From: an uncultured Actinomycetes bacterium
GTDB taxonomy: Bacteria > Actinomycetota > Thermoleophilia > UBA2241
Direction: 5' to 3'
Assembly (NCBI GenBank): GCA_963783865.1
Contig: CAWAPD010000003.1
Location: 485,009-549,008 of the forward strand
DNA: 64,000 nt
Position numbers and translations under genes: made by a program. This document shows, in pieces, positions 56,924 to 58,324 of the stretch (the stretch's first letter is position 1; every line of letters starts with the position of its first letter). The notes beneath the pieces are model-generated. The model saw only the letters and a list, made by a program, of their open reading frames with translations. It did no database searches and was not told where the DNA came from.

Positions 56924-58324
56924 GTGGAGTCGAAGATCCGTACCCGTATGGGCGACGGCGCCCTCGTCGAGACGACCCCGTCCGAGATCAGAGCCGATCT
57001 CGAGGCAGGCACTCAGCAGGCCGCCAAGCGCTCGAAGTACCCCGAGCTCACCAGCGACGAGCTCGACCACCTGCTCGACATCTTCGCGTCGAACAGCCGG
57101 GTGACCGGCGTCGACATCGGCGACGAGGTCGTCCTCAGCTACGACGGCTGCGGCAGCCAGGACATGGGGACCCGTATCAACGACCTCCAGGTCTACGAGC
57201 AGATCCTCTGCGCCGACTCGCTCGAGATGTACAGCCACGACTACTCGTACAAGCCGTGCAAGCCCCTCGTGCCTTACGAGCAGGCGATCATGCGCCAGGC
57301 GCAGTGGCTGCTGACGGCGCCCTGCGGCTACGGGGCGATGAGCGACCTCGGGCGCTACACCGTGCCCGACGGCCCGGTCGTCAACTGGTCGCAGCTGCTG
57401 CCGCTGGGCCAGATCGACGAGGCTCGGGCGGCCCAGGAAGAGGCCGTCGAGCTCGCCGCCGACGACATGGTGTTCGTGGCCGAGGGCATGGTCGAGGCCG
57501 GCGTCGACCACATCGACTTCGACACGGCCGGAGCGGCCGGCGACGCCGACTTCCTGGCCACGCTCAAGGCGATCGAGCGGCTGCGCGCCGCCTATCCCGA
57601 CTTGGGCATCCAGATCGGCATGGCCGGCGAGTTCGTGCTCGGCATGCACGGCGAGCTCGAGTACGACGGCAGGCGCCTGGCCGGCATGTGGCCGGTGCAG
57701 CAGATGGAGGCGGCGGCCAAGGCCGGCGTCACCATCTTCGGGCCGGCCGTCAACACCAACACCGGCAAGTCGATCGCCTGGAACGTGGCCCGCGTGCTGA
57801 CCATCTGCAAGCCGGTCTGCGAGCAGTCCACCGTGCCGGTGCACGTGAACGGCGGGATGGGCGTGGGCGGCGTGCCGATGCACATCACGCCGCCCGGCGA
57901 CGCGACGACCAGAGCCTCGCGGGCCTGCGTCGACATCCTGCGCCTCGACGGGTTGTAGGTGGGCGCCGGTGACGTCTACGGCCAGGCGACGGCGCACAGT
58001 GTCGCCTCGAGCATGGGCGGTATCCGCACTGCGGGAGATCTCGTAGCCAGGATGCAGTTCACCCGGGGCATGAGGAACATCGAGGCCAAGCGGTACGTGG
58101 CCGAGAAGCTGGGCGTGTCGGCGCTCGACCTGGTCGACCCGGTCGTGATGCTCGACGTGCGCAAGGAGTTCGGCCTGGGGTCGATGTACGAGTCCGAGAT
58201 CTCGGGACCCGACGACCCGCTCGCCATCGAGGCCAAGTTCAACATCTCGAAGGTGCTCGACGTCCCCATCAACTGCGTCGAGCGTTTCAAGGAGAAGAGC
58301 GGCCGGGCGGCGGCCCGGGCGTAG
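56924..58324 (+). CDS. mtbB: dimethylamine:corrinoid methyltransferase MtbB homolog (Dimeth_Pyl family), copy 1, with in-frame TAG (putative pyrrolysine codon) at 57956-57958
   Basis: Conserved MtbB blocks on both sides of the TAG: TRMGDG, YGAMSDLGRYTVPDGP, DFDTAGAAGD, GMAGEFVLGMHGELEYDG, FGPAVNTNTGKSIAWNVARV, GMGVGGVPM, then DGL-TAG-VGAGD...ASSMGGIRTAGDLVARMQF...EAKRYVAEKLGV; the ORF track splits it into 56897..57958 and 57959..58324; GGAGG RBS before GTG 56924. Confidence 0.75.

Follow-up and report, generated by a model that had tools for sequence, protein, structure and literature searches.

The two adjoining open reading frames (ORFs) at positions 56924-57958 and 57959-58324 of the 64,000-nucleotide (nt) stretch analysed here, referred to throughout as the window, are very probably a single gene, mtbB, encoding a dimethylamine:corrinoid methyltransferase in which the in-frame UAG codon would be read as pyrrolysine (Pyl). 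The window comes from an uncultured high-GC actinobacterium near the Thermoleophilia/Bog-752 group, and tblastn finds three mtbB copies in it, the gene in question being copy 1. The two ORFs form one homologous unit, and the TAG between them is invariant among the related copies. The start-like codon that follows the TAG is not conserved and has no ribosome-binding site, and pyl machinery is present in related metagenome-assembled genomes (MAGs). The gene has the following features.

56924-58324, + strand: mtbB copy 1, one 466-codon gene with a GTG start, an in-frame TAG as codon 345 and a final stop TAG at 58322-58324.
56914-56918, + strand: Shine-Dalgarno (SD) sequence GGAGG of mtbB copy 1, anti-SD duplex -10.6 kcal/mol.
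57956-57958, + strand: in-frame TAG, probably read as Pyl; TAG stands at the aligned column in 126/126 homologous copies.
57959-57961, + strand: GTG, probably the Val codon after Pyl and not a start, as judged by the codon counts of its column and the lack of an upstream SD.

The TAG abuts the GTG directly (CTC GAC GGG TTG TAG GTG GGC GCC GGT GAC), and a mechanical ORF list accordingly contains two same-frame entries, 56897-57958 (353 amino acids, aa) and 57959-58324 (121 aa, GTG start). The sequence-only reading of this DNA had described this split, had noted that the GTG has no ribosome-binding site, and had taken it for the MtbB residue after Pyl and not for an independent start; all three points were borne out. 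When the ORFs are joined through the TAG, the resulting 475-aa read matches PF09505 (Dimeth_Pyl) from residue 14 to 466, covering profile positions 3-462 of 463 (E 2.4e-161; 537.9 bits against a cut-off of 25), and also passes the TIGR02368 equivalog for dimethylamine:corrinoid methyltransferase with 408.1 bits against a cut-off of 369.1. A search of Protein Data Bank sequences with MtbB returned no solved relative. Of the 41 in-frame ATG, GTG or TTG codons of the gene, GTG 56924 has the strongest anti-SD duplex; it is also where the database protein P0001 begins, and its column across homologues is occupied by ATG, TTG or GTG. The best duplex in the 20 nt upstream of GTG 57959 is -3.6 kcal/mol, compared with a median of -3.1 kcal/mol for the 41 start-like codons, and this GTG ranks only 17th of the 41 internal start-like codons by duplex energy. 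The tryptic peptide across the Pyl site of copy 1 would be LDGL-O-VGAGDVYGQATAHSVASSMGGIR.

The TAG and the codon after it were compared in a scan of one genome per species, which covered 75 loci, nearly all from uncultured Thermoleophilia/Actinomycetota MAGs, and gave 126 mtbB copies including those of the window. All 126 copies from the 75 loci carry TAG at the aligned column, and TGA, TAA or a sense codon never occurs there. Past the TAG, nearly all homologous copies continue without a stop for another 116-129 codons, the peptide encoded on the 3' side is strongly conserved, and the downstream codons have a third-position GC content (GC3) of 0.93. The ~120 best database homologues, with few exceptions, are ~344 aa long and cover 72% of the query, as gene callers end these relatives at the same codon. 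The codon after the TAG is GTG in 51 of the 126 copies, GTC in 32, ATC in 19, GCG in 10, GTA in 6, GCA in 3, ATG in 2, and ATA, GCT and GTT in one each. Because most of this column (73/126) consists of non-start codons and just 53/126 copies have GTG or ATG, the GTG of copy 1 is best read as a Val codon and not as a conserved start. The position after Pyl would be a Val/Ile/Ala site at which GTG reflects the choice of Val codon, and on these counts a conserved internal start can be regarded as excluded, as can stop-start coupling as a general mechanism. Among lower-GC metagenome relatives (38-55% GC, n = 12), TAG is found in 11. The twelfth, locus L084 (6001-7401; GCA_016278615.1, JADQBM010000005.1), is a full-length MtbB homologue in a gene of 41% GC, with TTG (Leu) replacing the TAG. 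This is a single-base change, and the eleven relatives of it that were retrieved (42-77% identical) have TAG; L084 could be a naturally Pyl-free variant, or the codon may have mutated recently.

The other two copies in the window lie downstream of copy 1 on the same strand.

60660-62046, + strand: mtbB copy 2, probable TTG start at 60660 with GGAGG at 60647-60651; TAG at 61692-61694 followed by GTG; stop TAG at 62044-62046 in a shifted frame.
63015-64000, + strand: mtbB copy 3, cut off by the end of the window just short of the Pyl codon.

By tblastn, copy 2 is 62% identical to copy 1, with its final 26 aa in a different frame, and it repeats the TAG-GTG of copy 1 at 61692-61697. Copy 3 aligns over residues 11-338 at 58% identity. 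The sequence-only reading had referred to the TAG in all three copies. This stands for copies 1 and 2; copy 3 ends before the site in the window, and its TTG TAG GTG is known from its counterpart in a 95%-identical contig, L001. The frame change in copy 2 traces to a 1-nt insertion near 61949 (CCAGGCCGAGG, against CCGGGCGAGG in L001), seen on alignment to L001 and four orthologues, which throws the last 26 conserved codons out of frame. With 209 gap openings separating L001 from the window over 17 kb, the insertion is as likely to be an error of long-read MAG sequencing as a real pseudogenising lesion.

The lineage has the genes to make and charge a Pyl-tRNA. A direct database search with Methanosarcina mazei PylRS returned Methanosarcina sequences only. 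The actinobacterial PylSc was reached by way of a 50%-identity representative library, which led from M. mazei PylRS to a high-GC representative (P0255) and from there to its relatives, some of which NCBI labels 'pyrrolysine--tRNA(Pyl) ligase large subunit [Thermoleophilia bacterium]'. On related contigs pylSc scores 307 bits against TIGR02367 (cut-off 178) and pylSn 117 bits against TIGR03912 (cut-off 51). ARAGORN identifies tRNA-Pyl(CUA) in loci L077, L080 and L081, and pylD, pylC and pylB are adjacent to one another in L080 and L081. The full set of pylSc, pylSn, tRNA-Pyl(CUA) and pylBCD is present in the MAG CAZHMG01 and in one further actinobacterial MAG. Three MAGs hold pylSc together with a TAG-containing mtbB.

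CAZHMG01: mtbB locus L041; pylSc locus L081; full pyl cluster.
JBAZPK01: mtbB locus L068; pylSc locus L079.
JADGPQ01: mtbB loci L007 and L045; pylSc locus L098; L007 has the VGAGDVYGQ sequence type of copy 1 past the TAG.

By analogy with these related MAGs, the genome studied here would carry its pyl genes outside the 64-kb window. Published work agrees with a Pyl-using actinobacterial lineage: passages of a 2022 survey place PylRS in two Actinobacteria (PMC9630628), and passages of a 2023 metatranscriptome study of Stordalen Mire report that Actinobacteriota, notably the genus Bog-752, express Pyl-encoding mttB and mtbB (PMC10805028). In the same passages the Pyl genes are recognised by truncation at the amber codon, with no analysis of codon context or RNA structure given there. 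A bog_752 MAG locus in our set (L024) encodes an MtbB that is 80% identical and contains three TAG-containing mtbB copies in ~4 kb.

The pyl clusters themselves have a recurrent arrangement. In loci L077, L078, L079, L080, L081 and L098 (~8900-10860), pylSc always follows an N-acetylmuramoyl-L-alanine amidase gene (PG_binding_1 and Amidase_3 domains), with a 4-nt overlap. In Thermoleophilia, pylSn, tRNA-Pyl and pylD-pylC-pylB lie on the strand opposite to pylSc, beyond a Germane/Gmad2 gene. At 12472-14428 of L077, pylC is truncated (profile positions 220-371 only) and sits beside an RVT_1 reverse-transcriptase gene and a stretch without called genes, which suggests that a mobile element has inserted into the pyl operon.

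Several observations weigh against Pyl decoding of copy 1. ARAGORN, Pfam and tblastn found no pylS, pylB, pylC, pylD or pylT in the 64 kb; the tRNAs that ARAGORN reports there are tRNA-Leu, tRNA-Lys and tRNA-Thr only, and the Pfam annotation of the window (~40 ORFs) is one of actinobacterial housekeeping genes (PknB, FtsW, PP2C, FhaA, TopA, DnaK-GrpE-DnaJ-HspR-ClpB and LigA). ARAGORN likewise found no tRNA-Pyl in the window or the 75 mtbB loci, and pylS lies within 10 kb of mtbB in 0/75 loci. Clustering of the 937 ORFs of the loci showed Pyl-type mttB and corrinoid proteins and placed no pylBCD beside mtbB. A tblastn search with M. mazei PylRS gave no match in the window or any of the mtbB loci, which argues that the pyl cluster is not linked to mtbB in this lineage. 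UAG is also in ordinary use as a stop. It ends 13 of the 32 Pfam-supported genes of the window (~40%), including dnaK, clpB, topA and pknB, and TAG is not depleted in this Pyl-using lineage. Copy 1 itself terminates at TAG and has no in-frame stop for the next 714 codons; this long open frame is partly due to a same-frame 2-hydroxyacid dehydrogenase gene downstream. Among 122 mtbB homologues the terminal stop is TGA in 90, TAG in 30 and TAA in 2. Efficient and unconditional decoding of UAG would be costly under these circumstances. Because ~40% of ordinary window genes end in TAG, amber decoding must be partial, conditional on pyl expression, or assisted by context; in Acetohalobium arabaticum, use of Pyl is regulated by carbon source through conditional pyl expression. 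Two further TAG-joined ORF pairs of the window were considered as Pyl sites and rejected. The pair at 48735/48736 (an ORF of unknown function and a metallo-beta-lactamase) and the pair at 49840/49841 (a zinc-ribbon protein and an EAL protein) each combine unrelated families and are separate genes in relatives; both are tight gene junctions without a gap.

The arrangement at the TAG could also be read as two products. UAG-GUG adjacency is a classic arrangement for translational coupling, which at a stop-start junction needs no SD, and termination at the UAG followed by re-initiation at the adjacent GUG would give 344-aa and 121-aa polypeptides forming a split enzyme. A GTG or ATG follows the TAG in copies 1 and 2 and in 53/126 homologues, and GTG makes up 51 of the 90 Val codons in this column, somewhat above its gene-wide share of 45%. 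This is nevertheless a very improbable account of copy 1, given that 73/126 homologues have GTC, ATC, GCG, GTA, GCA, ATA, GCT or GTT at this position yet keep both the TAG and the downstream frame. Moreover, the TAG is never swapped for TGA or TAA, which would serve coupling equally well, no SD precedes GTG 57959, and the PF09505 and TIGR02368 descriptions define the family by a catalytic pyrrolysine at this position. The least probable explanation is that the TAG arose by nonsense mutation or through a base-calling error, in a gene that is dead or wrongly assembled. Copy 2 does carry a frameshift, and the 209 gap openings between L001 and the window show that the related assemblies are rich in indel errors, but the same TAG recurs in 126/126 copies from dozens of independent assemblies and in 11/12 distant lower-GC relatives, and the codons beyond it retain a GC3 of 0.93 and strong amino-acid conservation.

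The identity of the inserted residue is a separate matter, as a near-cognate tRNA or other suppressor could read the UAG and place a canonical residue at position 345. We consider this as improbable as the split enzyme. It would fit the absence of pyl genes inside the window, and the sense TTG (Leu) of the still-open distant homologue P0113/L084 indicates that a canonical residue is at least tolerated. However, pylSc, pylSn, pylT and pylBCD occur in the lineage, with pylSc in the same MAGs as TAG-containing mtbB, and the strict retention of TAG, in place of any sense codon, would be expected if Pyl were required. From this we infer Pyl insertion itself in the present genome. In the single-gene reading that we prefer, translation would begin at GTG 56924 behind GGAGG, and pyrrolysyl-tRNA(CUA) and release factor 1 would compete at UAG 57956, with Pyl inserted as the catalytic residue. 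The tRNA(CUA) would be charged by the split PylSc/PylSn synthetase and Pyl made by PylBCD. Translation would then run on for 121 sense codons, GUG (Val) and 120 more, and end at the UAG at 58322. Candidate context signals for the decoding of UAG 57956 are the rare UUG codon before the UAG and a hairpin at 58024-58051, both described below.

The sequence-only reading had proposed a different element, a weak stem downstream of the TAG, as a read-through context resembling a pyrrolysine insertion sequence (PYLIS).

57984-58007, + strand: 7-bp stem AGGCGAC (57984-57990) / GTCGCCT (58001-58007), probably a chance feature, in copy 1 only.

The stem does exist, although it begins 26 nt past the TAG and not at about 28 nt. 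It is included in the minimum free energy (MFE) fold of copy 1, and it falls inside the 100 nt modelled by the Rfam family PYLIS_2. Its proposed function is nevertheless most unlikely. In an ungapped alignment (A2) of 109 distinct homologous 123-nt segments, the stem is complete in 5 of the 109, and it is missing from copy 2. In its columns 55.6% of cells are paired, against 53.0 +/- 1.2% in shuffled alignments and ~53% when partners are slid by 2-3 columns. It appears neither in the RNAalifold consensus of the 109 sequences nor in the Rfam PYLIS_2 consensus structure. The fold of the 120 nt past the TAG of copy 1 has a z-score of just -1.38, with 19 of 200 shuffles folding as well, and that of copy 2 is -1.23. 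Structure prediction past the TAG, which the sequence-only reading had put forward together with a comparison with PYLIS elements, therefore finds that copies 1 and 2 fold like shuffles; the comparison, on the other hand, matches both copies to PYLIS_2 above the gathering score.

57956-58055, + strand: match to Rfam RF02509, PYLIS_2 ('Pyrrolysine insertion sequence mtbB'), 54.7 bits, gathering score 36, E 2.7e-11, model positions 1-100 of 100.
58024-58051, + strand: conserved coding-region hairpin; inner helix CUGCGGG (58029-58035) / CUCGUAG (58040-58046); loop AGAU (58036-58039).
58034-58039, + strand: hairpin loop codons of copy 1, Gly GGA (58034-58036) and Asp GAT (58037-58039).

In copy 2 the PYLIS_2 match spans 61692-61791 with 61.2 bits against the gathering score of 36. 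A search for the mtmB PYLIS (RF01982) gave no match in 56400-64000 at E <= 10. The two helices of PYLIS_2 fare very differently across the 109 homologues. The proximal helix (model positions 7-19 with 25-38) has 8 non-standard pairing positions in the copy 1 alignment and is paired in 54.8% of cells; it is not maintained in this clade. For the distal helix (model positions 73-80 with 85-92), 92.0% of cells are paired for the Rfam pairs. RNAalifold, given the same 123 nt of the 109 sequences, returns one structure, which pairs columns 69-72 with 93-96 and 74-80 with 85-91, counted from the T of the TAG. In this version of the hairpin 95.7% of cells are paired, compared with 84.2 +/- 0.6% in shuffled alignments, and 107 cells are changed on both sides, compared with 35; 0/500 shuffles reach either value. 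With slid partners the paired share is 33-47%.

Both the relatedness of the sequences by descent and the position of the structure within coding sequence limit how this covariation can be read. The conserved peptide R-(T/A)-A-G-D-L-V-A-R leaves no freedom at seven of the 11 hairpin pairs. The four free pairs (69:96, 72:93, 75:90 and 78:87) join third codon positions on both sides, and all four covary (CG/GC/UG/UA). On a neighbour-joining gene tree built without the hairpin codons, Fitch parsimony on the two pair orientations plus an unpaired class counts 10 class changes for 75:90 (6 unpaired sequences) and 7 for 78:87 (2 unpaired sequences), which suggests roughly 4-5 independent orientation flips for each. 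Copy 1 is a case in point, reading GCG...CUC and ACU...GUA against GCU/GCC...CUG and ACU/ACC...GUG in its closest relatives. The outer four pairs are half formed in copy 1, and the copy 2 hairpin at 61760-61787 forms all 11. Judged by this alignment, the distal hairpin at 58024-58051 is clearly conserved, with compensatory changes.

Synonymous codon choice also stands out in this region. Each column of a 103-sequence, 488-column codon alignment was scored against the genes' own codon usage, and the top three departures are the following.

26 codons past the TAG: Gly, GGA in 103/103; GGA makes up 5.1% of Gly codons elsewhere, and the 30 other conserved Gly columns have it in at most 34/103, usually fewer than 6.
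57953-57955, + strand: Leu right before the TAG, TTG in 73 of 76 Leu cases, against a 3.7% share of Leu codons elsewhere; the 22 other conserved Leu columns have it in at most 9/103.
Codon after the Gly: Asp, GAT in 70/103; GAT makes up 9.1% of Asp codons elsewhere.

The GGA-GAU codons make the hairpin loop and a GGAG (SD-like) motif, with their copy 2 equivalent at 61770-61775, and the bias toward GGA and GAT stands out in genes with 93% GC3. Lower-GC relatives (38-55% GC) keep the same nucleotides, GCC GGA GAT CTG, even though GCC and CTG would be expected among the less-used synonyms in lower-GC genomes; this persistence suggests that the nucleotides themselves are under selection. Initiation inside the gene, at GTG 58043 or ATG 58052 downstream of the loop GGAG, was considered and rejected, as codon 30 is GTC or GTA in about one third of copies and the ATG is 14 nt from the GGAG. 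The preference for TTG before the TAG extends to Pyl-type mttB, a different protein family in the same loci, where TTG TAG is found in 16/16 Leu cases. In copy 2 the codon before the TAG is TAC (61689-61691), and position -3 before the TAG is U in nearly all copies (TTG, TAC or TTC). Avoidance of CTAG does not explain the TTG, since CTG would not be selected against and 24 copies have TAC-TAG. The P-site UUG is a better candidate than the hairpin for an effect of context on decoding.

It may be that the Pyl UAG of mtbB and mttB is marked in cis by the P-site UUG and the covarying hairpin (columns 69-96, GGA-GAU loop), which together would favour Pyl-tRNA over the release factor. We regard this as a tentative and rather unlikely proposal; if true, such a cis context would explain how amber decoding is affordable where ~40% of genes end in UAG, and PYLIS_2 would be a real recoding signal and not just a computational annotation. 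Evenly balanced, in our estimate, is the possibility that the hairpin and its GGA/GAU codons are unrelated to UAG decoding and act in mRNA stability or processing, or as a pause for folding of the C-terminal barrel. The hairpin starts 68 nt past the UAG and, given the size of the ribosome footprint, lies out of reach of a ribosome with the UAG in its A site. L084, in which the Pyl codon is replaced by TTG, can still form 6 of the 7 inner pairs, and these genomes seldom use GGA or GAT. Against this, the Rfam entry names the element a pyrrolysine insertion sequence, albeit solely from computation, and the other extreme synonymous outlier, the TTG at -1, sits right at the UAG and suggests decoding-related selection. 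Because the hairpin is so distant from the UAG and L084 keeps most of its pairs without a TAG, we find a function outside Pyl insertion no less likely than one as a PYLIS. To our knowledge, no role in Pyl insertion has been demonstrated for the PYLIS_2 family. The family derives from a computational consensus structure (Theil Have et al. 2013, PMC3639795); the same source describes the mtbB structure as unlike the mtmB PYLIS, and PYLIS as inessential but raising yield.

Several neighbours of mtbB were recorded alongside the gene. A simple terminator scan missed a hairpin downstream of copy 1, because its T run is short.

58352-58390, + strand: 16-bp GC hairpin plus TTT, likely terminator, GGGGCGGCGGCGTGGC-GGAT-GCCACGCCGCCGCCCC-TTT, between the convergent mtbB copy 1 and a PHP-domain gene.

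On the 5' side, mtbB is closely preceded by a tRNA-Thr(UGU) at 56462-56537. The window and the 76 loci scanned contain 37 ARAGORN hits to this gene, an instance of conserved synteny. A Pyl-type mttB (trimethylamine methyltransferase, FVAGL-TAG-ADSKLGDAQTGHEK) adjoins mtbB copies at 18239-18955 of L001, just past the point corresponding to the window end, and in 16 further loci. The codons downstream of its TAG read GGT GAC ... GGT CAC, with the rare GGT twice and a 5-bp stem possible. Pfam annotation of the window gave no MtbC and no partner methyltransferase or activase; a corrinoid protein (TIGR02370/MtbC-like, under the equivalog cut-offs) is present in 8 related loci. Elsewhere in the window, 36894-38966 (- strand) encodes a 690-aa secreted multihaem cytochrome c (Cytochrome_C7, paired CXXCH motifs, MtrC-like domains), which is unusual for an actinobacterium.

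The Pyl codon of mtbB is an ordinary, known recoding event, as Pyl-mtbB has already been reported in this lineage and the RNA element is already in Rfam. What is new is of modest interest: covariation support for one PYLIS_2 helix and none for the other, and two extreme synonymous constraints, UUG at -1 and GGA in the loop. Both constraints are relevant to an old question, whether mRNA context plays any part in Pyl insertion. For annotation, the 353-aa and 121-aa ORFs should be merged as one Pyl-containing mtbB, and copies 2 and 3 treated likewise; gene callers cut nearly all of the hundreds of database relatives at the Pyl codon. The window also adds a soil actinobacterial species to the Thermoleophilia/Bog-752 group with multiple Pyl-dependent di- and trimethylamine methyltransferases, a group that vies with methanogens for methylamines in peat and soil.

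Among known systems, the closest parallel is found in Methanosarcina barkeri, whose mtbB1, mtbB2 and mtbB3 were reportedly described by Paul, Ferguson and Krzycki in 2000 as carrying a read-through amber codon. The window shares with these genes full-length homology above curated cut-offs, a single in-frame TAG at a conserved position and several copies per locus. It differs in that the host is a ~70% GC actinobacterium and not a methanogen, and in that mtbC and the pyl genes are not in the window. The single full-length lower-GC homologue retrieved shares 52% identity with copy 1. A split pylSc/pylSn synthetase is found in Desulfitobacterium hafniense, and the MAGs related to the window resemble such bacterial systems in having separate pylSc, pylSn, tRNA-Pyl(CUA) and pylBCD while TAG is still a common stop. 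Unlike in the Firmicute pyl operons, the gene order in these MAGs is different and the cluster lies away from the methyltransferase genes.

At the RNA level, both complete copies score above the RF02509 PYLIS_2 threshold over all 100 model positions and keep the distal helix (73-92) with covariation. In contrast to the Rfam model, the proximal helix (7-38) is not maintained here, and the distal hairpin adds the pair 78:87 and an extension, 69-72/93-96. The mtmB PYLIS (RF01982), though without a match in the region searched, is likewise a coding-sequence structure downstream of a Pyl UAG. The window represents a different species from the Stordalen Mire Bog-752 (best genome match 80%), but it shares with the organisms described in passages of that study (Ellenbogen et al. 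2023, PMC10805028) the same lineage and the same genes.

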